Shown here: positions 12,867 to 64,000 of the stretch, one piece after another
Position numbering within the stretch: position 1 is the first letter of the stretch
Layout: each line of letters starts with the position of its first letter
Assembly (NCBI GenBank): GCA_049322575.1
Contig: JBMORQ010000027.1
Span: forward strand, 9,092 to 73,091
From: Patescibacteria group bacterium
Lineage (GTDB): Bacteria > Patescibacteriota > Microgenomatia > UBA1400 > PJMF01
Direction of reading: 5' to 3'
DNA: 64,000 bases
Position numbers and translations under genes: made by a program
The notes under the pieces: model-generated
The model's database searches: none
Seen by the model: the letters and a program-made list of their open reading frames with translations, nothing else
Told to the model about the DNA's origin: nothing

Positions 12867-14103
12867 GATTTCGATGTTAAAAACTCTCCTATATTCGCTA
12901 AAAAAATACTATCATTTTTTTAAAACTGGTCTGATGCGGGGTTTACCTGCTGAGATTAAGAATGGTTTTCCGGCAAAAAAACTCAAAATTGTCTGCATCA
13001 CTGGTACCGACGGCAAGACAACTTCCTCGACCTTGCTCTACCACGTTCTCAAGTCAGCTGGCAAAAAGGTTGCTTTACTTTCAACAGTTGCAGCCTATTT
13101 CGGTGATCAGGAAATTGAAACCGGTCTGCACGTCACATCTCCCAGCCCCGACGCTTTGCACAAACTTATGAGAAAAATGGTTGATGAGGGAATCGAATAT
13201 CTGGTCTTGGAGTTTACTTCTCATGGAGCATACCAACAACGCCTGTGGGGTATTAAACCTCTAATCGCTGGTGTGACCAATGTTAATTATGAGCATCTTG
13301 ATTACCACCTCAATTACCAAAATTATCTTGAGGCGAAAGCCAGTTTCCTGAAAAAAGCTAAAACTATCGTTCTCAACCAAGACGACATGTCATTCTACCG
13401 ATTGCGCAAGTTGATATCAAACAAAAAACACAACTTTTTGTCATACTCTGCTGAGGAAAAACTAGCGCCAGTGATTAAAAAAGCGCTGCAACAACGTTTT
13501 TCTGAGCCGTTCAACCAAATGAACTCACGGCTGGTAACAAAAATGGCCTTAGAACTAGGCCTTACGGAAAAAGAAATTGCAGCCAGCATCGAATCCTTCC
13601 CAGGTGTTCCTGGAAGAATGCAGTTCATTAAAAACTCACGAGGTCTGAAAATTGTGGTAGATTTTGCTCATACACCGCAGGGCTTGGATGCAGCTTTACG
13701 GGCCATGCGCAAGATCATGAAAGAAGAACAAAGCCGAGGTCGCTTAATTGCCGTATATGGTTGCGCTGGCCTACGAGATCAGGTTAAACGTCCCACCATG
13801 GGAAAAATCGGCGTTGAACTGGCTGACCTAGTGATCTTCACCGCTGAGGATCCCAGAACAGAGAATGTTTGGTCGATTATTCGCCAGATGAAAGAGCAAT
13901 TAACTGAAGGTCACGATAAAATCGTTACTATCATCGATCGACAAAAGGCCATTGATTTCGCCATCAATCGTTTGGCAAAAAAAGGCGACTACATCGGCAT
14001 TTTTGGCAAGGGACCTGAAAAAAGCATGTGCTATGGCAAAATTGAGTATCCTTGGAGTGAAAGCCTAGCCGTGGAAAAAGCTCTACAAAACAAAAATAAT
14101 TAA
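12865..14103 (+). CDS. murE: UDP-N-acetylmuramoyl-L-alanyl-D-glutamate--2,6-diaminopimelate (or L-Lys) ligase MurE. The true start is probably ATG 12874.
   Basis: P-loop ITGTDGKTT. TSP..PDALHKLM motif. Mur-ligase middle domain (EFTSHGAYQQRLWG, NVNYEHLDYH). C-terminal domain. Short N-terminal domain. Confidence 0.85.
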   Translation: MISMLKTLLYSLKKYYHFFKTGLMRGLPAEIKNGFPAKKLKIVCITGTDGKTTSSTLLYHVLKSAGKKVALLSTVAAYFGDQEIETGLHVTSPSPDALHKLMRKMVDEGIEYLVLEFTSHGAYQQRLWGIKPLIAGVTNVNYEHLDYHLNYQNYLEAKASFLKKAKTIVLNQDDMSFYRLRKLISNKKHNFLSYSAEEKLAPVIKKALQQRFSEPFNQMNSRLVTKMALELGLTEKEIAASIESFPGVPGRMQFIKNSRGLKIVVDFAHTPQGLDAALRAMRKIMKEEQSRGRLIAVYGCAGLRDQVKRPTMGKIGVELADLVIFTAEDPRTENVWSIIRQMKEQLTEGHDKIVTIIDRQKAIDFAINRLAKKGDYIGIFGKGPEKSMCYGKIEYPWSESLAVEKALQNKNN

Positions 14104-52674: not shown

Positions 52675-52951
52675 TCTTGTGGATAACTAACCACCGTATT
52701 CTCTCAAAAAAACCAGTTTTTGACCAGAACATGACGATGATATGTACTAATACGCAATATGGCAATCTGTAGGGGTTACTCATTGCTTATACCACCAGGC
52801 ATAGACAGAGGAAACTCAGCAATAAGCACCAGTTATTTATCTGAGTTACTGTAAAGTCAGATCAACTAGTTGAAATAGTATGCTCTGGTGTCTCATTATC
52901 AACTCAACCGAAGACTATCATCTATACAACCCCCCTCAAGCGGCTAGCGAG

Positions 52952-52957
52952 TATAAT
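52952..52957 (+). promoter_or_regulatory. -10 box (gTATAATag) 9 nt upstream of the uvrB ATG at 52967.
   Basis: cgagTATAATagaggattcATG. Supports the shorter uvrB start. Confidence 0.4.
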
Positions 52958-52966
52958 AGAGGATTC

Positions 52967-55276
52967 ATGAAATTCAAGTTGCAAGCCCCCCACCAACCAA
53001 CAGGAGATCAGCCGCGTGCCATTAAGCAATTAACTGAAGGATTGTTGAATGAGGCCAAATATCAGACATTACTTGGAGTGACCGGTTCAGGTAAAACTTT
53101 TACTATGGCCAACCTTATTGAGAATGTTCAAAAACCCACTTTGGTGATCGCTCACAACAAAACTCTAGCGGCTCAACTCTACCAAGAATTCAGGGATTAT
53201 TTCCCAGAAAATGCCGTCAATTATTTTGTTTCCTACTACGACTACTACCAACCTGAAGCGTATATTCCAAGCACCGATACATACATTGAAAAAGAAGCAC
53301 AAATTAATGATGAAATAGATAAGTTGCGCCTTGCCGCAACAACCAATCTTTTGACAAGACCTGACGTCATCATTGTTGCCTCAGTTTCTTGTATTTATAA
53401 CCTTGGCTCGCCTCACGAATACGACCGATATTTACTTGAAATCTCCGTGGGAGACATGATCGAGCGCCGAGCTTTTGTAGATCAGCTCGCCAATTTGCAA
53501 TATGAGCGTTCGGATTTAGAGCTGAGACGCGGCACTTTCAGAATTAAGGGAGATATAATTCAAATTTGGCCAGCGTATGAGGACATGGCTCTAAAGATTG
53601 ATACTTTGGAGAACCGGATCACTTCAATTAATCAAATCGATCCTATAAGCGGTTTAATTAATCAAAGTGAACACCAAAGTCGTTTTGAGCATCCCTCAAA
53701 ATCACAAAGTTATATCGTTTTCCCAGCTAAACACCACGTGATTGACCCTTCAACCCTCCAAAGCGGTCTAGCAGCAATTAGAAACGATTTGGAGAGACGC
53801 ATCAATGAACTCAATACACAAAACAAACAACTTGAGGCGTATCGCTTAAAACAAAAAGTTAATTACGACATTGAAATGATAGAGCAATTTGGATTTGTTG
53901 CTGGAATCGAAAACTACTCTCGCTATTTCGATGGTCGCAAGCCAGGACAACCACCATACACCTTGCTTGACTATTTAGCACTAAATGCAAAAAAGTTTCA
54001 AACCGACTCGTTTTTGACTTTCATCGATGAAAGCCACATAACAGTCCCTCAAATCAGAGGTATGTATCGAGGTGATCAGTCGCGAAAAGCAACTCTAATT
54101 GACTATGGTTTTCGACTACCTAGTGCCATAGATAATCGCCCACTTCAATTCAGTGAATTCTTAGAAAGAAACAACCAAACGATCTATGTTTCAGCAACTC
54201 CGAACGAATGGGAGATCGAACAATCTAAAGGAAAAGTAATAGAACAATTGATTCGACCAACCGGCTTAACAGATCCAACCATTGAAATTCGACCAACTAC
54301 CAATCAAATAGAAGACCTAGTAATCGAGGTTATTAAAAGAAAAACCCTTGGTCAAAGAACCTTGGTGACAACTCTAACCAAGAAAATGGCCGAAACCTTA
54401 ACGGACTATTTAAATGATAAAACTAAGATTGATCAACTGATTACGAGTCATAAACAAAAACTCAATGACTTTGACTTTGAATATTCCTCAAGAATTATTG
54501 GGTCAGAAAGAGATTATTTACCCATGGAAAATATGGAAATTGGCCCGATTCAGAATAGTATATTCACTTCGTCGCGTATCGACTCAATCGTAGGGGACCT
54601 AGATCCAGATCAACTTTATCCCAAAGTCGCTTACCTACATTCAGATATTGAGACGCTGGAAAGATCGGACATTCTCGATGATCTTAGACTTGGAAAATAT
54701 GATGTTTTGGTTGGTATCAACCTTCTCAGAGAGGGACTTGATCTTCCCGAGGTTACATTGGTGGCAATCTTGGATGCGGATAAAGAGGGTTTTCTAAGAT
54801 CGGCCACTTCGATGATTCAAACAATCGGTCGCGCAGCGCGTCATATCGAAGGAAAGGCTCTCTTGTATGCTGACAAGCTCACAATTTCCATAAAGCAGGC
54901 AATTGAGGAAACACAGCGGAGAAGGCGCATTCAAGTTAAATATAACACCGAACACGGTATCAATCCCAAAACGATCAATAAACCAATCCGTGCCAAACTC
55001 TTTCTGAGGGATGAGGTCACTGATGATGACGGCATTTACTCGGCGAAATCAAAAAACAAAAAGACCCTCTTTGAAAGCCAAGAATCAGGCTTGGTAATTC
55101 AATTAAACAAACAACGAGCAATTGATCTAACAAAGCTTAATCCTGAGTCATTAACGCCTTCTGACAGAAATAAATTGAGTAAAGTACTGCGACGCCGCAT
55201 GACTAGAGCTGCCAATGAACTTGATTTTGAACTAGCAGCCATCTTGCGAGACCACATTCACAGACTTGAGGACTAA
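52967..55276 (+). CDS. uvrB: Excinuclease ABC subunit B, with an insertion of about 70 aa in helicase domain 2.
   Basis: PTGDQPRAIKQL, GVTGSGKTFTMA (Walker A), beta-hairpin region, YLHSDI...LVGINLLREGLDLPEV, C-terminal UVR domain (ELDFELAAILRDHIHRL). Start adjusted to MKFKLQAPHQ. Confidence 0.9.
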   Translation: MKFKLQAPHQPTGDQPRAIKQLTEGLLNEAKYQTLLGVTGSGKTFTMANLIENVQKPTLVIAHNKTLAAQLYQEFRDYFPENAVNYFVSYYDYYQPEAYIPSTDTYIEKEAQINDEIDKLRLAATTNLLTRPDVIIVASVSCIYNLGSPHEYDRYLLEISVGDMIERRAFVDQLANLQYERSDLELRRGTFRIKGDIIQIWPAYEDMALKIDTLENRITSINQIDPISGLINQSEHQSRFEHPSKSQSYIVFPAKHHVIDPSTLQSGLAAIRNDLERRINELNTQNKQLEAYRLKQKVNYDIEMIEQFGFVAGIENYSRYFDGRKPGQPPYTLLDYLALNAKKFQTDSFLTFIDESHITVPQIRGMYRGDQSRKATLIDYGFRLPSAIDNRPLQFSEFLERNNQTIYVSATPNEWEIEQSKGKVIEQLIRPTGLTDPTIEIRPTTNQIEDLVIEVIKRKTLGQRTLVTTLTKKMAETLTDYLNDKTKIDQLITSHKQKLNDFDFEYSSRIIGSERDYLPMENMEIGPIQNSIFTSSRIDSIVGDLDPDQLYPKVAYLHSDIETLERSDILDDLRLGKYDVLVGINLLREGLDLPEVTLVAILDADKEGFLRSATSMIQTIGRAARHIEGKALLYADKLTISIKQAIEETQRRRRIQVKYNTEHGINPKTINKPIRAKLFLRDEVTDDDGIYSAKSKNKKTLFESQESGLVIQLNKQRAIDLTKLNPESLTPSDRNKLSKVLRRRMTRAANELDFELAAILRDHIHRLED

Positions 55277-55409: not shown

Positions 55410-58409
55410 ATGAAACAAACTACATCAGAAAAAACATCGATTGACTACATAATCATCAAGGGTGCTCGTGAGCATAACCTCAAAAATATCAATCTTTTAA
55501 TTCCAAAAAACAAATTTGTTGTTTTTACTGGTCTCTCTGGGAGTGGTAAAAGTTCCCTTGCATTTGATACTCTGTATGCCGAGGGACAAAGACGATATGT
55601 CGAGTCGTTAAGTTCATACGCGAGGCAATTTCTGGGTGTGATGAATAAACCAGAAATTGACCACATTGAAGGCTTGTCTCCGGCTATTTCCATCGACCAA
55701 AAAACCACCTCTCATAATCCACGTTCAACTGTCGGTACCATCACGGAAATTTATGACTACTTACGGTTACTTTTTGCCAGAATTGGTCATCCTCATTGTC
55801 CGAACTGCGGTAGAGAGGTCTCAACTCAAAGTATTGACCAGATTGTGAGCAAGGTTTTGAGCGAGCTCAACCAAAGATCTTCGCAACAAGTCATCCGCCT
55901 CTCAGTTCTCTCGCCAATTGTGCGCAATCGCAAAGGTGAGTTTTCCGGACTCTTTACCAATCTAATCAAACAGGGCTATAGTCGCACTAGAATTGATGGC
56001 AAAATCTACGACATCAATAAGGATCTCTCACTCATCAAAACCAATAAGCATAATATTGATGTCTTAATTGATCGGATTACTACTAGCAACAAACAACTCG
56101 AAGATGAAAAAGAGTTTGAGGCTCTCAAATCAAGGATTACCCATTCCATCGAGGAGTCACTGAAACTAGCCGATGGCTTGTGTGTGGTAAGTTGGATCGA
56201 GGACCAAAGCTTCACTTTTCCCGAAAATCCAGAAGTATTTTCTGACCAACTCTATAGTGAAAAGCTAGCTTGTCCTAATTGTAATATTTCTATCAAAGAA
56301 CTTGAGCCAAGGCTATTCTCCTTTAACTCTCCTGATGGCGCCTGTGAAACCTGCAACGGCTTAGGTTCGATTTTGAAAATTGATCCCAACAAAATTCTGG
56401 CTAAAAGTCTCACTCTGAGTGAGGGGGCGATTGTTCCTTTTGCCAGAGTGCTGGGTAATGACAGCTGGTGGTCGAGATTAGTTCAAGTCGTGGTAGAAGA
56501 AGCGGGCTATGATTTTCGCAAAACGCCTTTCATGGAAATGTCGACAGATTTTCAGGATGTCTTGCTACATGGCTCGGATAAGGTCTACAAGATTGTTGGT
56601 ACCAATCGTTTTGGCAAGGAAACCGTTGTTCACAACACTTTTGAAGGTTTCATTTCGAATTTAGAAAGGCGCTACCATGAAACCGACAGCAGCTTCATTC
56701 GCAATGAAATTGAACAGTATATGCAGCGTGAGATTTGCGGCACCTGTAACGGTGCTAGGCTTAAAAAAGAGGCATTGGGAGTCACCATTGACCAACAAAA
56801 CATTAACGATATTACCAACCTTCCTGTTAAAAAATCGTTGGCTTGGAGCAAGGAGTTGGTTTCAAAAAATAACCTTAATGCCATTGAAAAACAGGTTGCT
56901 ATGCCAGTTATTAAAGAAATCCACTCCAGACTTGAATTTCTTTCTTCGGTAGGCTTAAACTACTTAACTCTACATCGTGAGGCATCAACATTGGCCGGCG
57001 GAGAAGCGCAACGTATCCGACTCGCATCACAAATCGGGACTGGTTTAACCGGCGTCTTGTATATCTTGGACGAACCAACTATCGGCTTACACCCCAGAGA
57101 CAACAATCAACTTATCGAAACTCTCAAGAGCCTTAGAAACAATGGTAACTCGGTGGTAGTGGTTGAGCATGATCGAGATGTGATGCTTGCCTCAGATTAC
57201 ATTTTTGATTTCGGACCCCTCGCTGGAAAAGATGGCGGTGAAGTGGTAGCAGAGGGCTCGCCACAACAAATCATGTCCGATCAAAAGTCGCTCACAGGCA
57301 AGTACTTGTCTCGAAAAAAAGATGTCAAAATCGACAAAAGAGAAACAAACAAAGAACCAAAGCTCGTTTCAATTGAAGAAACAGACGATTTAATTAATCA
57401 AAGAACTTCGATTGAAATCTATGGCGCTTCTCACCACAACCTTAAAAACATAGACGTAAGCTTTCCGCTCAGGTCACTAACATGTATCACCGGCATTTCT
57501 GGATCAGGCAAGTCTACTTTGCTTCACGATACCCTTTATTACAATTTGGCAAATAAACTTGAGAAAAAAATTGATAGGCGCCCCGGACATGTTGAAAGAA
57601 TTTCTATTCCTGACGAGATTAGTCGGGTTGCTTTAATTGACCAAAGTCCGATCGGTAAAACACCACGCTCCAATCCCGCAACCTATACCAAAATTTTTGA
57701 TCTCATCCGCAAGCTGTTTGCCTCAACAAAAGAATCGACCCTGCGAGGATTTAATCAAGGTCGTTTTAGTTTCAATGTTAAAGGAGGTCGTTGTGAAACC
57801 TGTCAGGGTGAGGGCCAAATAAAAATCGAAATGCAATTTTTACCCGACATCTATGTTGAATGTGATGTTTGTCACGGGAAAAGATACAACCAAGAAACTC
57901 TCCAGGTTCTCTATAAAGATAAGAATATTGCAGAAGTTCTGGAAATGACCGTAAGTGAAGCTCTAAAATTCTTCAGCAACAACGGTACCATCAACCAAAA
58001 ATTGCAGACACTTATCGATGTCGGCTTGGGCTACATTAAACTCGGACAACCAGCCCCGACGCTTAGTGGAGGTGAGGCGCAGAGAGTCAAACTCGCCAGA
58101 GAACTCAGCACTAGAACCCAACAACACGTAGTTTACCTACTAGACGAACCAACAACTGGTTTGCATTTTGCCGATGTGCAAAAACTACTGGAGGTATTAC
58201 ATCAGTTAGTTGAACAAAACAATACGGTCATTCTCATTGAGCACAACCTGGATATTATAAAAAACTGTAATTGGATCATAGATCTGGGTCCCGAGGGTGG
58301 AGAGTATGGTGGAGAAGTCATTGCGCAGGGTTCACCTCAGCAAATAGCAAATAATCCCGACTCATTTACTGGTTTCTATTTAAAAGAGGAGCTCAAACAG
58401 CTAAAATGA
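55410..58409 (+). CDS. uvrA: Excinuclease ABC subunit A.
   Basis: Two ABC modules (GLSGSGKSSL, GISGSGKSTL). LSGGEAQR signatures twice. Zn-finger Cys pairs (CPNC...C..C). Confidence 0.9.
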   Translation: MKQTTSEKTSIDYIIIKGAREHNLKNINLLIPKNKFVVFTGLSGSGKSSLAFDTLYAEGQRRYVESLSSYARQFLGVMNKPEIDHIEGLSPAISIDQKTTSHNPRSTVGTITEIYDYLRLLFARIGHPHCPNCGREVSTQSIDQIVSKVLSELNQRSSQQVIRLSVLSPIVRNRKGEFSGLFTNLIKQGYSRTRIDGKIYDINKDLSLIKTNKHNIDVLIDRITTSNKQLEDEKEFEALKSRITHSIEESLKLADGLCVVSWIEDQSFTFPENPEVFSDQLYSEKLACPNCNISIKELEPRLFSFNSPDGACETCNGLGSILKIDPNKILAKSLTLSEGAIVPFARVLGNDSWWSRLVQVVVEEAGYDFRKTPFMEMSTDFQDVLLHGSDKVYKIVGTNRFGKETVVHNTFEGFISNLERRYHETDSSFIRNEIEQYMQREICGTCNGARLKKEALGVTIDQQNINDITNLPVKKSLAWSKELVSKNNLNAIEKQVAMPVIKEIHSRLEFLSSVGLNYLTLHREASTLAGGEAQRIRLASQIGTGLTGVLYILDEPTIGLHPRDNNQLIETLKSLRNNGNSVVVVEHDRDVMLASDYIFDFGPLAGKDGGEVVAEGSPQQIMSDQKSLTGKYLSRKKDVKIDKRETNKEPKLVSIEETDDLINQRTSIEIYGASHHNLKNIDVSFPLRSLTCITGISGSGKSTLLHDTLYYNLANKLEKKIDRRPGHVERISIPDEISRVALIDQSPIGKTPRSNPATYTKIFDLIRKLFASTKESTLRGFNQGRFSFNVKGGRCETCQGEGQIKIEMQFLPDIYVECDVCHGKRYNQETLQVLYKDKNIAEVLEMTVSEALKFFSNNGTINQKLQTLIDVGLGYIKLGQPAPTLSGGEAQRVKLARELSTRTQQHVVYLLDEPTTGLHFADVQKLLEVLHQLVEQNNTVILIEHNLDIIKNCNWIIDLGPEGGEYGGEVIAQGSPQQIANNPDSFTGFYLKEELKQLK

Positions 58410-58413
58410 GCTT

Positions 58414-60321
58414 ATGAACACTGGTTTCTTTAAGAAATGTTTGATTCTTTTGATAGGTCTTCTCGCTCCTTTTACTAGCCAACCAATCCGTGCTGAAACG
58501 AAACATTTTGAGAGCTATCTAAACACTACATACTCGGTTAATGAAGATGGCTCAACATATGTTGAACATAATTTCCAAATCAAGAACTTAACACCAACTT
58601 TCTTTGTCAACAAATACGGTCTTCAATTAAGTTCTGGAAATATCGCTGATGTTCGTGTCACCAACGGCAATCAAGCTATTGATGCTGAAGTTGTTAACAC
58701 GGACAACAAAACAACTGTTGGCATTACTTTCCCAGACAAGGTTGTTGGTGAAGGGAAAATAAGACGCTTTACCATAAGTTACAAAAATGAGGATATTTCT
58801 CAAGTTTCTGGCCAAGTATTAGAAGTCAGCATCCCAAAATTAAACGATCCCACTGCTTACGATAAGTATGGTGTGACTCTAATCACTCCTTTGAAATTCG
58901 GCTATCCAAACCGTGTTACTCCTGAATCGTTTACCCAACAAATTGCCGGCAATAAGGTCGAGCTACACTTTAGTAATCTGGCCGGCCAAAGCATTTCCGC
59001 AATCTATGGTGAAAAACAAATCTTTGAACTCAAGCTTCGTTATATACTCGAAAACGATCGTAACCAACCTGTAATTAGCCAAATTACTTTACCTCCAGAT
59101 ACCTCCTTCCAAACAGTGCACTACCAAACTATCGAGCCAAAACCGCAAAAAATTGAGCTCGATAATGATGGTAATTGGATAGCCACTTACCAGTTGAACA
59201 ACAACTCCCAGGTTGAAATAAAGGCTCAAGCCAAAGTAATGCTTACGCTTGATCAAAATAAAGAAATACCTGTCTTTCTACCAACCGGAAACCACCTCAA
59301 AACCAAAGAATATTGGCCAGTTAAAAACCCCGACATCATCACTCTTGCAACTCAAAATCCCACTGCAGAGGACATCTATAATTTTACGTCCACTACACTT
59401 AGCTACACTACAGAGCCTCTATCAATTGATCTGAAACGTCTTGGTGCTCAAGCAGCAATCGAAAATCCCAGCAAGTCAACTTGCCAAGAATTCACTGATG
59501 TCTTCATAACATTGGCTAGAGCCAATGACATACCAGCTCGCCGTGCAACCGGCTTTGCCTATTCCGAAAATGAAAAGCTTCGTCCACTCAGTCTACCTGG
59601 TGACGTCCTGCATGCTTGGCCAGAATTTTTCGACCAAGAAAAGAAAGTATGGAGACCGATTGACCCCACCTGGGGAAATACAGCTGGCGGAGTAGATTAC
59701 TTCAACCAATTTGATCTAAACCACATAGTCTTCGCCTTTAATGGAGAATCAAGCGAACGACCCTACCCAGCCGGTTCATACCTGCAATCAGAGACACCCC
59801 AAAAAAACGTTGAGGTAACCTTTGCCAAAGATTTTCCAGAGACCCAAACCAAAATACTTGCCACTCTCAAGCCTCAGAAGATTGGTTTTATTGACTTTCC
59901 TGGAACATACCGTTTAGAACTGGAAAATGCTACGGGTCGCGCATGGTACAACCTTAATGTCAGTTATCGAACTGATGATCCAGAAACATTAATATCAACC
60001 CAAGAAAATCGGCAGCTCATTCTCCTGCCTTATCAAAAAATTGAAGTGCCTTTTAGGGTTTATAATAGGTCTTTGTCATCATCTTTTGACAAACAAATAC
60101 AAATCATCGTCGAAGTTGGTAAAAAAGATAGCTTAACTCATGACTTCCAAGTCAACTCAATCCCAGAATTCAACAGCCTCAACCAATATAAAGTCCTTTT
60201 CTCCCTCTTGGTCTCAGGAAGTATCATCGGCGCCCTTACAACCGGGAGTCTACTCGTTTTTAGACGCAGAAAACAAAATTCTCTACGTGGGAAAAGCCAA
60301 AAAACTGAGGAATCGACTTAG
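58414..60321 (+). CDS. Secreted transglutaminase-like (papain-fold) enzyme with signal peptide and C-terminal TM anchor.
   Basis: Signal peptide (LILLIGLLAPFTSQPIRA). Catalytic Cys in STCQEFTDVFITLARANDIPARRATGFAY. His in DVLHAWPEFF. Asp in RPIDPTWG. C-terminal TM helix plus basic tail. Starts 4 nt after uvrA. Confidence 0.7.
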   Translation: MNTGFFKKCLILLIGLLAPFTSQPIRAETKHFESYLNTTYSVNEDGSTYVEHNFQIKNLTPTFFVNKYGLQLSSGNIADVRVTNGNQAIDAEVVNTDNKTTVGITFPDKVVGEGKIRRFTISYKNEDISQVSGQVLEVSIPKLNDPTAYDKYGVTLITPLKFGYPNRVTPESFTQQIAGNKVELHFSNLAGQSISAIYGEKQIFELKLRYILENDRNQPVISQITLPPDTSFQTVHYQTIEPKPQKIELDNDGNWIATYQLNNNSQVEIKAQAKVMLTLDQNKEIPVFLPTGNHLKTKEYWPVKNPDIITLATQNPTAEDIYNFTSTTLSYTTEPLSIDLKRLGAQAAIENPSKSTCQEFTDVFITLARANDIPARRATGFAYSENEKLRPLSLPGDVLHAWPEFFDQEKKVWRPIDPTWGNTAGGVDYFNQFDLNHIVFAFNGESSERPYPAGSYLQSETPQKNVEVTFAKDFPETQTKILATLKPQKIGFIDFPGTYRLELENATGRAWYNLNVSYRTDDPETLISTQENRQLILLPYQKIEVPFRVYNRSLSSSFDKQIQIIVEVGKKDSLTHDFQVNSIPEFNSLNQYKVLFSLLVSGSIIGALTTGSLLVFRRRKQNSLRGKSQKTEEST

Positions 60322-61513
60322 AAACTATCTGCAGATCAAGGATCTATCTCCTCGCATCGCGAAGATGGTTAAACTCGCTGTTAAGCTCGAATATCAGATA
60401 CTTTCCAGCGAACTTGAGTCATTGCTAGTTGAAGCAGAACTTATCCGTACTCTGCAACCTCAATTTAACGTCCTACTAAAAGACGATAAATCATCACTAT
60501 ATATAGTAGTAACAAAGGAAGAGTTCCCCAAGATAGTGAAAACTCGTAAACGAGAACTTGTCAGAAAGAATATTTCTGGGCAGGTAATTGGTCCTTTTCC
60601 TAGTAGTTATAAGTTAAATGAGGTACTAAAAATTGTCAGACCAATTTTTAAGTGGTGCGATAAGAAAACAAGAGATAACCAAGCCTGTTTCTATCACCAT
60701 CTTGATCTTTGTTCTGGTGCCTGTGTCAGACAAATCACCCCTGAGGAGTACCAAGCAAATATTAAACAATTAGTATTATTTCTGCGCGGGAAGAAAAAGC
60801 TTGTATCAAATAATCTGAGAATGATGATGAAACAAGCCGCAAAAGAAGAAAAGTTTGAATTAGCGAACAGATACAAACAGATGATTCAATTAATTGAAGA
60901 GGTAACAAATCCAGAGTTTAGACTAAAGCCCGATTTAGCCTTACCAGTTTTCCAACTTAAACAAAAAGAAATTGGTTTGATCAATCTTTCACAGATGATG
61001 GGCACATATTTAAATAATCTACCACCAAATTATCCGCTTAACAGAATCGAAGGTTATGATGTCTCCAACATTCAGGGAACCAATGCTGCCGTCTCCATGG
61101 TTGTTTTTATAAATGGTCAACCGGAAAAGAAACTTTATCGTGTCTTCAATATCAGAACACTTAAAACCCCCAACGATTTTGCCATGCTTAAGGAAGCACT
61201 AATAAGACGTCAGAACCATCCAGAGTGGGGAAAACCTGACTTGATAATCATTGATGGGGGAAAGGGTCAACTCAAATCAGCACTTGCTGCCTGGAAGTGG
61301 CCTAATCCAGTTATCAGCATTGAAAAGCATCCGGATCGGCTAATTTTTCCACGAATTACCTCCATCGAGGGCAGGAAAACCAGCGATTATTCTGTTATCA
61401 AGCTTGAAAAAGAACACCCAGCACTAAAACTGGTTGCAAATGTACGCGACGAATCCCATCGCTTTGCAAAAAAACAACACATTAGATTAAGGACTAAGAA
61501 TCTGCTATCATGA
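60140..61513 (+). CDS. uvrC: Excinuclease ABC subunit C, short form: GIY-YIG, Cys-rich, UVR and RNase-H-like endonuclease domains, without the C-terminal (HhH)2 domain. Start uncertain.
   Basis: GIY-YIG (PGVYSFLDAENKILYVGKAKKLRNRLRNY), Cys cluster (HHLDLCSGAC), UVR helix (ELANRYKQMIQLIEEV), endonuclease domain (IEGYDVSNIQGTNAAVSMVVF), ends DESHRFAKK...*. 457 aa versus about 600 for canonical UvrC. The ATG at 60140 overlaps the upstream ORF by 182 nt. Confidence 0.8.
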   Translation: MTSKSTQSQNSTASTNIKSFSPSWSQEVSSAPLQPGVYSFLDAENKILYVGKAKKLRNRLRNYLQIKDLSPRIAKMVKLAVKLEYQILSSELESLLVEAELIRTLQPQFNVLLKDDKSSLYIVVTKEEFPKIVKTRKRELVRKNISGQVIGPFPSSYKLNEVLKIVRPIFKWCDKKTRDNQACFYHHLDLCSGACVRQITPEEYQANIKQLVLFLRGKKKLVSNNLRMMMKQAAKEEKFELANRYKQMIQLIEEVTNPEFRLKPDLALPVFQLKQKEIGLINLSQMMGTYLNNLPPNYPLNRIEGYDVSNIQGTNAAVSMVVFINGQPEKKLYRVFNIRTLKTPNDFAMLKEALIRRQNHPEWGKPDLIIIDGGKGQLKSALAAWKWPNPVISIEKHPDRLIFPRITSIEGRKTSDYSVIKLEKEHPALKLVANVRDESHRFAKKQHIRLRTKNLLS

Positions 61514-61517
61514 GGTT

Positions 61518-61874
61518 GTGAAAGCTATAATTCGAACAATTATTGCCATCGCCATCCTAGCCTGGATTTTGCCGACAGTTGATTATTTAAATTGGACAAC
61601 ACTCTTAATCGCCGGGGTGGTTTTAACCATTCTTCAAAGTGTGATTAAACCCATACTAAAATTATTTTTCTTGCCGGTCAATATTGTGACATTTGGGCTT
61701 TTTTCTTTAGTTATCAACGTGATAATAATCTGGTTGCTAACTTTTCTGGTTCCCGGAATGCGCATTGATAACATTGTGCTGTTTGGTGTACCTCTGAACA
61801 GTTTTTTCTCTTTGTTATTGGTTTCAAGTCTGATCAGCTTTCTACAATCGTTTATCAGGTTTTTTATCAAGTAA
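61518..61874 (+). CDS. DUF360 / phage-holin-family-4-like small membrane protein (4 TM).
   Basis: 118 aa, four hydrophobic helices. GTG start after GAGG. Confidence 0.55.
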   Translation: MKAIIRTIIAIAILAWILPTVDYLNWTTLLIAGVVLTILQSVIKPILKLFFLPVNIVTFGLFSLVINVIIIWLLTFLVPGMRIDNIVLFGVPLNSFFSLLLVSSLISFLQSFIRFFIK

Positions 61875-61898: not shown

Positions 61899-62888
61899 AT
61901 GAAAAAAATTGTCATAAGCCTCTTTTCACTACTGTTGTTTGGTATTGTCCTGGGAGTTACCTCTCCAGAACGATATCAAGCTGAGGCACAAGAAACAAAC
62001 GGCTCTATAGAAATTCTTGAGGTTTTTGATCAAGATGGCAACCTATTTGACTCTGCCACTGATAGCAGCGAAGCAACTAACACCGGCAAGCTCGCCTCAG
62101 TTTCAGCAGAGGTTGAACAGAAAATTCAAGAAAAAAAGGATAAAGACATTACAGACACTAGTGGAAAGCAAAAGGGCAAATTAGCGTCATACCTTGACGA
62201 ACACCCAACCGGACCACTTTCTTGGCACAATCCTCTGCAAGTTGCCATCCGTGCCGCCATTGAAAAAGGTCTACCTGCCAATATTATTGTTCTATTACTG
62301 ATGTTTCCGATCATCGCCTCAATTATTGCCGCCTCTAGACATGTGGTTGGACTCAAAGGATTTGGTATCTATATTCCCGCCGTTTTAGCCGTTGCTTTGG
62401 TTTCAACAGGCATTCTAACCGGTCTGACGATTTTCATTGTCGTTTTAGCTGCCGCAATAGCAACCAGAACGATCATTAGAAAATTTCGCATGCCATATTT
62501 GCCAAGAACAGCCATGTTGATGTGGGGTGTATCGATTGTTACCCTGCTAGTTTTAATCGGTTCGGTTATTATGATAGAGAACTCAACCCTTCTCACTATC
62601 AGCATCTTCCCTGTGCTTATCATTATTCTTTTAACAGAAAATTTTATAGAATCTCAACAATTTAACAGCCAAAAAGAGGCCATAAAACTAACTGTGGAGA
62701 CCATTTTCTTGTCAATTCTCTGTTCCATATTCATCAGTAACGAGACGCTCCAAAAGGTTGTCATCCTGCGTCCAGAATTAACTCTACTTTTAGTTGCCTT
62801 TATCAACTATGCCATCGGCAAATACTCTGGACTAAGATTTCTAGAATACCTACGTTTTAGAGAAATTCTTAATAACAACAATGAGTAA
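61899..62888 (+). CDS. Seven-TM membrane protein of the 7TM/ATP-grasp-associated family (7TM-ITG-like, but lacking the inactive transglutaminase domain).
   Basis: Signal/TM helix, about 110 aa low-complexity ectodomain, then seven hydrophobic helices. The stop overlaps the start of the ATP-grasp gene by 8 nt (ATGAGTAA). Confidence 0.65.
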   Translation: MKKIVISLFSLLLFGIVLGVTSPERYQAEAQETNGSIEILEVFDQDGNLFDSATDSSEATNTGKLASVSAEVEQKIQEKKDKDITDTSGKQKGKLASYLDEHPTGPLSWHNPLQVAIRAAIEKGLPANIIVLLLMFPIIASIIAASRHVVGLKGFGIYIPAVLAVALVSTGILTGLTIFIVVLAAAIATRTIIRKFRMPYLPRTAMLMWGVSIVTLLVLIGSVIMIENSTLLTISIFPVLIIILLTENFIESQQFNSQKEAIKLTVETIFLSILCSIFISNETLQKVVILRPELTLLLVAFINYAIGKYSGLRFLEYLRFREILNNNNE

Positions 62889-64000
62889 AGCATCTGAAAT
62901 CTTGGGCATGAATGCCCGAGAGCAATTCTATTCTCGCCTTAATTCCACTCAAGCAAAGAGTGTCTGCAAATCTAAGTTGGCTACAAAACTCCTGATGCAA
63001 AGTAGAGGTATTCCTACGGCAGAGTTTTATGGCATCTTTGCCTTACCAGAGGATGTGAACGGTTTCGATTGGCAAAGCCTTCAAAAAAACTTCGTTATTA
63101 AACCAACCAACGGTCACGCAGGTAAGGGTGTAGTGGCATTTAAAACCCAACACCCAACTAAAGCAAACACTTGGATTGATGCCATTGGAAGAGAGTGGTC
63201 CCTAGATGACATCAAACTGCACTGCTACGACATTCTGGAGGGTCAATACAGTACTCATGGCTCACAGCACAACGTTATCATTGAAGAACGTATTCCCATC
63301 CATCCTAAACTACTCAAATACACCTACAAGGGCACACCTGACGTCCGTGTGGTGGTGTATAACAATGTACCAGTCATGGCAAAACTCCGCTTGCCCACTA
63401 AAGAATCGGAGGGACGTGCCAATGTAACCCAAGGCGCCATCATGACAGGCATCGACATCGCCACTGGTGTTACTACCTATGCCGTAGCCCACAAAACTCA
63501 GATGATTAAATATTTGCCAGGAACAAAAAAGAAGCTTAATGGCATACTCATCCCTCAGTGGAACAGGGCGCTAAAAATCTCGGTAGAGGCTACAATGGCT
63601 GCCAATCTTATGTACTGCGGAGTCGACCTATTTTTTCACGAAGAAAAAGGACCGATGGTTGTGGAATTGAATGCTTTTCCGGGACTTTCGATCCAAGTAG
63701 CCAACAAGGCTGGCTTACGACGCAGGCTTTCTAGGGTTGAAGATCTCAATGTACTTAACGCAGAACATGGGGTAAGAATAGGCCAGGCACTTTTCGCGGA
63801 AAGTTTTTCCGACAAAATTACCGCTGAAGATGGCCTAACTATCATTTCAGCCAACGAGACAGTGAAAATTCAAGCCGAGAATAGACGTTCTATCGAGACC
63901 TTGGCACTAATCAACACTGGCCGTTATCGATCAGCTATATCAAGCAAGCTTGCTAGCGAAATTGGCCTGATTGATGTTGACGATTTGCTCTGGTTTCAAC
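62881..64000 (+). CDS. RimK-related ATP-grasp amidoligase (alpha-L-glutamate-ligase-like), 3'-partial; runs off the window edge.
   Basis: N-terminus ILGMNAREQFYSRLNSTQAKSVCKSKLATKLLMQSRGIPTAEFYGI. ATP-grasp motifs IKPTNGHAGKGV, VVVYNNVPVMAKLRLP, MYCGVDLFFHEEKGPMVVELNAFPGL. No stop codon before 64000. Confidence 0.75.
   Translation, partial: MSKASEILGMNAREQFYSRLNSTQAKSVCKSKLATKLLMQSRGIPTAEFYGIFALPEDVNGFDWQSLQKNFVIKPTNGHAGKGVVAFKTQHPTKANTWIDAIGREWSLDDIKLHCYDILEGQYSTHGSQHNVIIEERIPIHPKLLKYTYKGTPDVRVVVYNNVPVMAKLRLPTKESEGRANVTQGAIMTGIDIATGVTTYAVAHKTQMIKYLPGTKKKLNGILIPQWNRALKISVEATMAANLMYCGVDLFFHEEKGPMVVELNAFPGLSIQVANKAGLRRRLSRVEDLNVLNAEHGVRIGQALFAESFSDKITAEDGLTIISANETVKIQAENRRSIETLALINTGRYRSAISSKLASEIGLIDVDDLLWFQ

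Follow-up and report, generated by a model that had tools for sequence, protein, structure and literature searches.

Several described systems bear on the locus considered here. The periplasmic domain of TgpA (PA2873) of Pseudomonas aeruginosa, a protein predicted to contain six transmembrane (TM) helices, exhibits transglutaminase activity in vitro (PMC3507681). In the rlo system of the same species, RloB combines an inactive transglutaminase with seven TM helices, RloC is a cytoplasmic ATP-grasp protein and RloA is a secreted retropepsin-like peptidase; loss of RloA is rescued by deletion of rloB or rloC, and rloABC affects osmotic tolerance, cell shape and antibiotic resistance (PMC12239564). 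As for genes that share nucleotides, co-directional overlaps exceeding 60 base pairs (bp) have been held to be annotation errors, the longest real one found being the holD/rimI overlap of less than 60 bp (PMC2478687), and Thermus rnpA/rpmH form a nested out-of-frame pair (PMC9841429). The present analysis concerns a 64,000-nucleotide (nt) stretch of DNA, termed the window, from a Patescibacteria group bacterium (contig JBMORQ010000027.1, positions 9,092 to 73,091), and within it the gene of a transglutaminase (TGase)-like protein of 635 amino acids that lies between uvrA and uvrC.

Taken as a whole, the evidence makes it probable that the TGase-like protein is a lineage-specific, envelope-acting surface enzyme of Microgenomates-type bacteria whose genomic position is fixed by a dual-coding overlap with uvrC. 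The arrangement described in an original prediction made from the window alone was confirmed: the open reading frame (ORF) occupies 58414..60321 on the forward strand, begins 4 nt after uvrA (stop codon TGA at 58407-58409, spacer GCTT, ATG at 58414) and overlaps uvrC by 182 nt. The features of the two overlapping genes are as follows.

58414..60321, + strand: TGase-like gene, ORF of 635 amino acids, stop codon included
58414..58494, + strand: predicted Sec signal peptide, residues 1-27, with a basic n-region, a hydrophobic core and an (I/V)xA-type site, ending in PIRA ahead of ET
58507..59253, + strand: predicted N-terminal β-rich ectodomain region, residues 32-280
59287..59742, + strand: predicted transglutaminase/papain-like catalytic core, residues 292-443
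59482-59484, 59611-59613 and 59662-59664, + strand: codons of the triad residues Cys357, His400 and Asp417
59809..60156, + strand: predicted C-terminal β-sandwich domain, residues 466-581
60187..60261, + strand: predicted C-terminal TM anchor of the TGase-like protein, residues 592-616, YKVLFSLLVSGSIIGALTTGSLLVF, within a model helix that starts at residue 589
60262..60321, + strand: predicted basic cytoplasmic tail of the TGase-like protein (RRRKQNSLRGKSQKTEEST) and stop codon
60140..60321, + strand: dual-coding segment shared by the TGase-like gene (3' end) and uvrC (5' end, +1 frame)
60140..61513, + strand: uvrC, 457 amino acids, with the Pfam domains GIY-YIG, UVR and UvrC_RNaseH_dom
60242-60460, + strand: GIY-YIG domain of uvrC (Pfam), residues 35-107

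Pfam recognizes a single domain in the TGase-like protein, Transglut_core (PF01841), at residues 317-418 (49.7 bits against a cut-off of 23, E = 5e-13), and no domain of a DNA-binding, ATPase or nuclease type was found. Pfam searches at E <= 10 with the N-terminal 316 and the C-terminal 217 residues gave sub-threshold noise only, and an NCBIfam search of the protein returned no match. Cys357 (STCQEF), His400 (LHAWPEF) and Asp417 (IDPTW) are invariant, as are many neighboring residues, in an alignment of 33 sequences comprising homologues at 40-50% identity. Across 199 homologues, Cys357 is kept in 198 and both His400 and Asp417 are kept in every one. In an alignment to P. aeruginosa TgpA (PDB entry 6g49), the same three residues fall on its Cys, His and Asp. 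Together, the Pfam match, the conservation and the TgpA alignment bear out the predicted transglutaminase-fold enzyme with an apparently intact catalytic triad.

An AlphaFold model built with the 33-sequence alignment (mean predicted local distance difference test score, pLDDT, of 84; predicted template modelling score, pTM, of 0.74) is organized into a helix at residues 3-20, β-rich domains at 32-280, an α/β core at 292-443, a β-sandwich at 466-581 and a long helix from residue 589 onward. Cys357 opens the helix 357-370, His400 opens the strand 400-407 and Asp417 lies just past the strand 412-415. In the model this placement matches that expected of the papain/transglutaminase fold, and the protein as modelled adopts a papain/transglutaminase-like three-dimensional fold. 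The structure prediction thereby agrees with the residues named in the original prediction, the triad residues lying where the fold would place them.

The N-terminus, MNTGFFKKCLILLIGLLAPFTSQPIRA followed by ET, resembles a cleavable Sec signal peptide in that a basic stretch is succeeded by a hydrophobic one and then by PIRA ahead of ET. This pattern, including the (I/V)xA-type site, is conserved in the alignment, and a low-pLDDT linker at residues 25-27 follows the helix 3-20 of the model. At the other end, a hydrophobic helix of 25 residues (592-616) is followed by RRRK. Given a signal peptide and a single C-terminal anchor, the catalytic part is predicted to face outward, in agreement with the extracytoplasmic topology first proposed. 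A sortase-type sorting signal was considered for the C-terminus and rejected, since no LPXTG-like motif precedes the TM helix in the homologue alignment.

These features suggest how the protein may work. It would be exported through its Sec signal peptide and would display, outside the cell, a β domain resembling ribophorin I and M1 N-terminal domains, a transglutaminase/papain-fold core with a putatively active Cys357-His400-Asp417 triad, and the β-sandwich domain. One C-terminal TM helix and a basic cytoplasmic tail would tether the enzyme to the membrane. By analogy to TgpA, PeiW/PeiP, LapG and WbmE, a thioester acyl-enzyme could form with a peptide or amide from the cell envelope as substrate, to be either hydrolysed, as by a peptidase, isopeptidase or deamidase, or passed to an amine in a cross-linking reaction. 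As judged from sequence, the most likely role of the TGase-like protein is that of a cysteine peptidase or transamidase working outside the cytoplasm on the cell envelope.

The window protein is 100% identical to an NCBI protein from a metagenome-assembled genome, annotated as 'transglutaminase-like domain-containing protein [Patescibacteria group bacterium]'. A word-indexed search found 1346 homologues, 120 of which were listed; statements on length, domains and source rest on those 120. They are mostly 610-690 amino acids long (range 566-718), each carries PF01841 alone, and the entries among them that name a source come nearly all from Patescibacteria, Pacebacteria, Woesebacteria or Microgenomates. 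An exhaustive profile search of 1.84 billion representatives yielded 1004 clusters (50% identity) at E <= 1e-30, nearly all of them full length at 600-650 amino acids. By these searches the TGase-like family is large and uniform, with its named members among the listed homologues belonging to the Patescibacteria lineage, and the enzyme is an uncharacterized, lineage-specific variant of a known superfamily.

The genomic context was compared in 80 loci from species-representative genomes, encoding proteins of 33-47% identity to the window protein, in which the seven neighbor proteins of the window were located by tblastn. The order uvrB-uvrA-TGase-uvrC-PF04020-7TM-ATP-grasp recurs across these loci, so that the homologues are linked to uvrA and to the 7TM/ATP-grasp genes, and the refuting condition named with the original prediction, a lack of such linkage, was not borne out. 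The embedding in a uvr cluster, which had been called odd, is the conserved norm of the lineage. The tightest link is to uvrC, which directly follows the TGase-like gene in every locus with available sequence except one (L053). Upstream and on the same strand, uvrA is found in ~90% of the loci with enough sequence at a median gap of 42 nt, with insertions of more than 500 nt between uvrA and the TGase-like gene in 15 loci, and uvrB precedes uvrA in most related loci. Among the 63 loci with enough downstream sequence for such counts, the PF04020 gene lies downstream of uvrC in 59 and is nearly as constant a neighbor as uvrC. The 7TM_transglut/ATP-grasp pair is downstream in 47, with the ATP-grasp gene within 4.5 kb. 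The remaining 16 keep the TGase-uvrC arrangement and have no such pair within 10 kb; they are mostly more divergent, and several are named Woesebacteria or Chisholmbacteria. Independent gene calls with Pfam labels on four further contigs show uvrB, uvrA, the TGase-like gene, uvrC, PF04020, 7TM_transglut, ATPgrasp_ST and MATCAP. The public records of many contigs that clearly bear the array (L002, L004-L006, L012 and L046 among them) give the source as 'uncultured Pseudomonadales bacterium', 'Vitreimonas sp.' or 'Methylococcaceae bacterium', which looks like taxonomic mislabelling of the assemblies.

In the window, uvrC opens with the ATG at 60140. A TAA in the uvrC frame stands two codons 5' of it, and between this ATG and the conserved PGVY motif (first base 60242) the uvrC frame contains no other ATG, GTG or TTG. 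The overlap is at least 80 nt whichever uvrC start is used, because PGVY...LYVGKAKKLRNRL is encoded before the stop codon of the TGase-like gene at 60319-60321. The shared nucleotides encode conserved residues of both products, namely PGVY of uvrC (together with LYVGKAK..R in the window) and the TM helix and RRK tail of the TGase-like protein. In work on UvrC by Truglio et al. (2005), the two tyrosines and the arginine of the GIY-YIG motif are reported to be catalytic. When read in the shifted frame, the LYVGKAK motif resembles the tail of the window TGase-like protein.

The overlap was then compared across 79 loci, comprising the window and the 78 related loci that have both genes, with the TGase stops in all of them computed from the ORF start. 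The TGase ORF runs into uvrC in all 79, and in 78 of them the uvrC frame is +1 to that of the TGase-like gene. The TGase stop falls 32-191 nt past the first base of PGVY in 71 loci, most commonly 35 nt past it with a protein end of ...GSLLVFRRKR, and the length of the tail varies among homologues. In the other eight, which are divergent, it lies 4-31 nt before PGVY, yet still 35-59 nt past the last possible uvrC start. Taking the start codon closest to PGVY gives minimum overlaps between 35 and 266 nt, with 74 nt as the median. The dual-coding segment appears to be old and is conserved in every related locus examined that has both genes.

Three further observations point to constraint on both frames. 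Firstly, the TGase-phase frame has 8.1% stops per codon in the rest of uvrC, yet it is open through the overlap in 79/79 loci; at that stop frequency the open runs are not expected by chance. Secondly, a hydrophobic 19-mer followed by at least two Lys/Arg residues is found at the end of the TGase-like protein in 76/79 loci, with a median span of -40 to +16 nt around the first PGVY base. Thirdly, the PGVY proline codon is CCG in 58 of 68 overlapped loci, as compared with 13% elsewhere in the same uvrC genes, and the glycine codon is GGA in 59 of 70, as compared with 27% elsewhere. The third bases of CCG and GGA are exactly those that yield Gly-Ser in the TGase frame, and the eight loci without an overlap at PGVY show no such preference. 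At the level of nucleotide sequence, the codons chosen at PGVY show that both frames are under selection. For PGVY(W)F, the residues possible in the alternate frame are limited to G/R/W, S/G/R/C, L/I/V, L and V, a ready-made membrane-helix sequence.

The start of uvrC is called inconsistently in public data. Within the open uvrC frame, an in-frame ATG is found 10-60 codons upstream of PGVY in 78/79 loci, the nearest one at a median of 33 codons, and most of these candidate ATGs have no Shine-Dalgarno-like motif in the 20 nt upstream (79 loci; 60115-60139 in the window). The resulting N-terminal extension of UvrC before PGVY is rich in Ser, Thr and Gln and is longer than in model bacteria, where this stretch comprises ~15-20 residues. 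The NCBI call of the window gene is a 408-residue 'hypothetical protein' (MFZ5376675.1) whose start is a GTG inside LYVGKAK, the Logan call has 382 residues and no GIY-YIG domain (L081 9952-11100), and a search of a 15-billion-protein collection did not find the exact 457-residue UvrC. Of three calls by JGI that were checked, one, in the relative L084 (8213-9166), shortens uvrC to 317 residues without GIY-YIG; the other two annotate overlaps of 137 and 59 nt and retain the domain. Prodigal caps same-strand overlaps at 60 bp. Since this 60-bp rule fails in the lineage, both the NCBI and the Logan call of uvrC in the window's organism, like the one in L084, are without the GIY-YIG nuclease domain, and metabolic or repair inventories of candidate-phyla bacteria drawn from such calls will understate excision repair.

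The later starts in the NCBI, Logan and JGI L084 calls might be taken to mean that the overlap is an artefact, either because uvrC starts past the TGase stop or because a sequencing or assembly frameshift extends the TGase ORF. This explanation is very improbable. The shortened calls drop the strongly conserved PGVY...LYVGKAK motifs of GIY-YIG, which Pfam recognizes in the full ORF and which the two longer JGI calls include. The overlap recurs in 79 independent assemblies with the same phase in all but one, the codon bias at PGVY is confined to overlapped loci, and conservation of the protein extends to the TM anchor and basic tail that the shared segment encodes. Overlaps of this kind are a rare though known phenomenon, of which the present one is an unusually long and deeply conserved case.

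The exceptional locus L053 (9938-12948) is informative in this respect. It is the sole related locus in which the TGase-like gene stands beside neither uvrA nor uvrC, and there, too, the protein has a C-terminal TM helix and basic tail. Since the anchor is kept where uvrC is missing, it is a real protein feature rather than a by-product of reading through uvrC. The PF04020 gene still lies downstream although uvrC is absent, and the spacer between the two genes, ~690 nt long, contains no ORF of at least 90 amino acids and terminates in short tandem repeats (acctgat, cacctag); a uvrC since lost may have left this stretch behind.

The conserved position between uvrA and uvrC raises the question of a role in repair. 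The TGase-like protein could be a cytoplasmic or membrane-associated accessory of nucleotide excision repair, comparable to the inactive transglutaminase-fold domain of eukaryotic Rad4/XPC, or could be joined to UvrC by a programmed +1 frameshift that tethers UvrC to the membrane. Anantharaman, Koonin and Aravind reportedly noted in 2001 that a transglutaminase fold is present in Rad4/XPC. Topology would permit a fusion, since uvrC is in the +1 frame and the tail of the TGase-like protein is predicted to be cytoplasmic. On the other side, the signal peptide and single C-terminal anchor are predicted to put the catalytic domain outside the cell, and the triad is intact, unlike that of Rad4/XPC; the analogy to Rad4/XPC was rejected on these two grounds. 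Furthermore, uvrC keeps its own in-frame ATG in 78/79 loci, L053 carries the TGase-like gene with no uvr neighbors, and the position of the TGase stop relative to PGVY, ranging from -31 to +191 nt, is a poor fit to a fixed frameshift site. A repair function of either kind therefore has very little probability.

Under the favored explanation, that of a surface enzyme locked in place by the overlap, the TGase-like gene would be one link of a co-directional array, uvrB-uvrA-TGase-uvrC-PF04020-(7TM-ATP-grasp-MATCAP). Its last ~60 codons, which specify the end of the β-sandwich, the TM anchor and the RRK tail, would share nucleotides with the first ~60 codons of uvrC, including those of the catalytic GIY-YIG tyrosines. 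Splitting the two genes would damage both, and the surface enzyme would therefore stay in a repair cluster while having no repair role. The same lock-in would account for the difference between the TGase-uvrC link, which only one locus lacks, and the looser association with uvrA and with the 7TM/ATP-grasp genes. Translation of uvrC would be initiated at an internal start, usually one lacking a Shine-Dalgarno motif, within the translated TGase-like gene, and for this reason UvrC synthesis is probably low. UvrC levels are low in E. coli, and a low output fits with this.

In a stronger version, the shared segment would be a lineage-wide coupling device, in which translation of the anchor sets the use of the uvrC start and a fraction of the product is perhaps shifted by +1 into a membrane-tethered TGase-UvrC fusion. 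Such coupling is considered improbable, though not negligibly so; if true, the amount of UvrC in Microgenomates-type bacteria would be tied to how much of an envelope enzyme they synthesize.

The other genes of the array on which the remaining comparisons depend are as follows.

52880..55276, + strand: uvrB, with the Pfam domains UvrB, UvrB_inter, Helicase_C and UVR; the true start is probably the ATG at 52967
55410..58409, + strand: uvrA, with the Pfam domains UvrA_inter, UvrA_DNA-bind and ABC_tran
61518..61874, + strand: PF04020 (Phage_holin_4_2/DUF360-type) membrane protein gene with four TM helices, Pfam E = 1e-20
61899..62888, + strand: 7TM_transglut (RloB-like) membrane protein gene, PF14402, E = 1e-23
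62881..64000, + strand, running past the window end: ATPgrasp_ST/alpha-L-glutamate-ligase-like (RloC/RimK-like) gene, PF14397, E = 5e-59, and TIGR02291

The genes are closely spaced, with gaps of 133, 4, -182, 4, 24 and -8 nt from uvrB through the ATP-grasp gene; the PF04020 gene starts 4 nt past the end of uvrC, and the end of the 7TM gene and the ATG of the ATP-grasp gene overlap by 8 nt (62881-62888). A scan for promoters and terminators found sites no commoner than in shuffled sequence, and in the window run from uvrB to the ATP-grasp gene no terminator was predicted between genes, the uvrA/TGase-like junction included; the scan carries little weight in either direction. The spacing and the lack of predicted terminators are consistent with one long operon. 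The PF04020 gene is left uncalled in L081, the contig of the window's own organism. In L001, uvrC and the PF04020 gene flank an ORF of 100 amino acids (13083-13385) that has no significant Pfam match and no counterpart in the window.

The downstream 7TM_transglut and ATPgrasp_ST genes noted in the original prediction were confirmed by Pfam. The window 7TM protein matches the NCBIfam RloB model only over positions 315-507 of 508, and 120 listed 7TM homologues, 283-394 amino acids long, carry PF14402 only and no inactive-transglutaminase domain. The full-length ATP-grasp protein has 427 amino acids, as seen together with the following MATCAP gene in the downstream modules of L081 (11486-14706) and L001 (13883-17067); this last gene encodes a metallopeptidase of the MATCAP family (PF08014, DUF1704-type). 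The pairing of an ATP-grasp ligase with a MATCAP carboxypeptidase is reminiscent of the tubulin tyrosination enzymes.

The C-terminal ~130 residues of the ATP-grasp protein give weak, sub-threshold matches to retropepsin families (gag-asp_proteas in 8/11 members and Asp_protease_2 in 6/11, best E = 7.6e-4). The region corresponds to approximately 63760-64000 of the window (ATP-grasp residues 295-373) and to residues 295-427 of P0387. In most members its motif is INTGR, with Asn in the place of Asp, and some have MDTGR, which suggests that the C-terminus may be a fused and mostly inactive RimB/RloA-like domain. An AlphaFold model of the ATP-grasp protein has a pLDDT below 50 in this region, and a profile search of the PDB with the C-terminal domain returned chance-level matches only.

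These neighbors allow another explanation, namely that the TGase-like protein is the extracytoplasmic partner of a downstream Rlo-like module consisting of the 7TM_transglut protein, the ATP-grasp protein and the MATCAP-like peptidase. It might be the active, detached counterpart of the inactive domain of RloB, or it might stand in for RloA and process or cross-link an ATP-grasp product handled by the 7TM protein. The co-directional, tightly spaced array of the window and its recurrence in three quarters of the 63 loci speak for such a partnership, as does the uniform lack of an inactive-transglutaminase domain among the listed 7TM proteins of the clade. The rlo operon of P. aeruginosa, moreover, depends on the secreted peptidase RloA to counteract what RloB and RloC produce (PMC12239564), and the only retropepsin-like sequence of the clade is the weak, mostly Asp-to-Asn C-terminal domain of the cytoplasmic ATP-grasp protein.

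Other results do not favor a partnership. The TGase core matches PF01841 only; it does not match PF14400 (Transglut_i_TM) even at E <= 10, and the protein does not match the NCBIfam RloB model at E <= 0.01. Its multi-domain architecture of 635 residues is unlike that of the inactive-transglutaminase domain, and in place of the features of 7TM-inactive transglutaminase (7TM-ITG)/RloB proteins it has a single C-terminal TM helix, an intact rather than degenerate triad, and a PF14402 module encoded in a separate gene. The uvrC and PF04020 genes always separate the TGase-like gene from the 7TM gene, so that the two are never adjacent, and 16/63 loci have the TGase-uvrC arrangement but no pair within 10 kb. 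A functional partnership with the Rlo-like module is thus possible but doubtful. The 7TM/ATP-grasp pair lies near the TGase-like gene in most of the 63 loci but not in all, and the proposal of a 'split' 7TM-ITG system was not upheld on account of the missing PF14400 and RloB matches, the lack of adjacency and the loci with no nearby pair. As an interpretation, then, the original prediction stands with regard to an apparently active surface enzyme and a real overlap, and falls with regard to the 'odd' placement and the 'split' system.

A locked-in, envelope-acting enzyme is preferred, and some points weigh against it. The frequent proximity of the 7TM, ATP-grasp and MATCAP genes leaves room for a functional tie. 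The signal peptide, and with it export, was called by eye with the model helix 3-20 as additional support. The loci are phylogenetically related, and the nominal binomial and run-length probabilities of the overlap statistics are therefore overstated, while the pattern remains consistent. Lastly, a literature search found no description of the TGase-like family or of overlapping genes at uvrC, and no experimentally studied family member.

If both frames are translated and no coupling is involved, few co-directional dual-coding segments between two domain-defined bacterial genes would match the TGase-uvrC overlap in length and depth of conservation, and translation of both frames would contradict the '60-bp rule' built into gene callers. 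Two constraints, a TM anchor and a nuclease active site, are placed on one stretch of DNA across proteins that are 33-50% identical, which makes the segment a useful subject for work on the origin and persistence of dual coding. The family itself is apparently active at the surface of organisms in which envelope biology and attachment to hosts are little understood, and is for that reason a sensible biochemical target.

The comparison with known systems may be summarized as follows. TgpA (6g49/6g4h) shares the aligned Cys, His and Asp with the TGase-like protein, and the similarity is limited to ~75 core residues. In contrast to the window protein, TgpA lacks the ribophorin-I-like N-terminal domain, the C-terminal β-sandwich and the single C-terminal anchor, and its gene has no uvr context. 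The Cytophaga hutchinsonii protein 3isr, of the 'transglutaminase-like putative cysteine proteases' type, is 17% identical; it comprises 293 amino acids with no TM anchor in the solved chain, and is biochemically uncharacterized. The pseudomurein endoisopeptidases PeiW/PeiP, the adhesin protease LapG and the deamidase WbmE are likewise extracytoplasmic enzymes with a transglutaminase fold, but they have other accessory domains, no such C-terminal TM anchor and no linkage to uvr genes, and come from unrelated lineages.

The likeness to rloABC lies in the downstream genes of the window, one of which matches RloB in its 7TM part and the other the RloC/RimK-like ATP-grasp protein. RloB, however, has a fused inactive transglutaminase domain and the window 7TM protein has none, whereas the TGase-like protein is a separate and apparently active enzyme of 635 residues encoded two genes away from the 7TM gene. 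No secreted RloA is seen in the window module, where a MATCAP-like peptidase follows the ATP-grasp protein instead.

With holD/rimI and rnpA/rpmH the TGase-uvrC pair has in common that conserved genes on the same strand share nucleotides in different frames (PMC2478687, PMC9841429). Unlike holD/rimI, its overlap exceeds the proposed limit of 60 bp (PMC2478687), and unlike rnpA/rpmH, which share a start region, the TGase and uvrC starts lie ~1.7 kb apart. The TGase-uvrC overlap combines a membrane anchor with a nuclease's catalytic N-terminus, and it is conserved across many groups at the level of candidate phyla.

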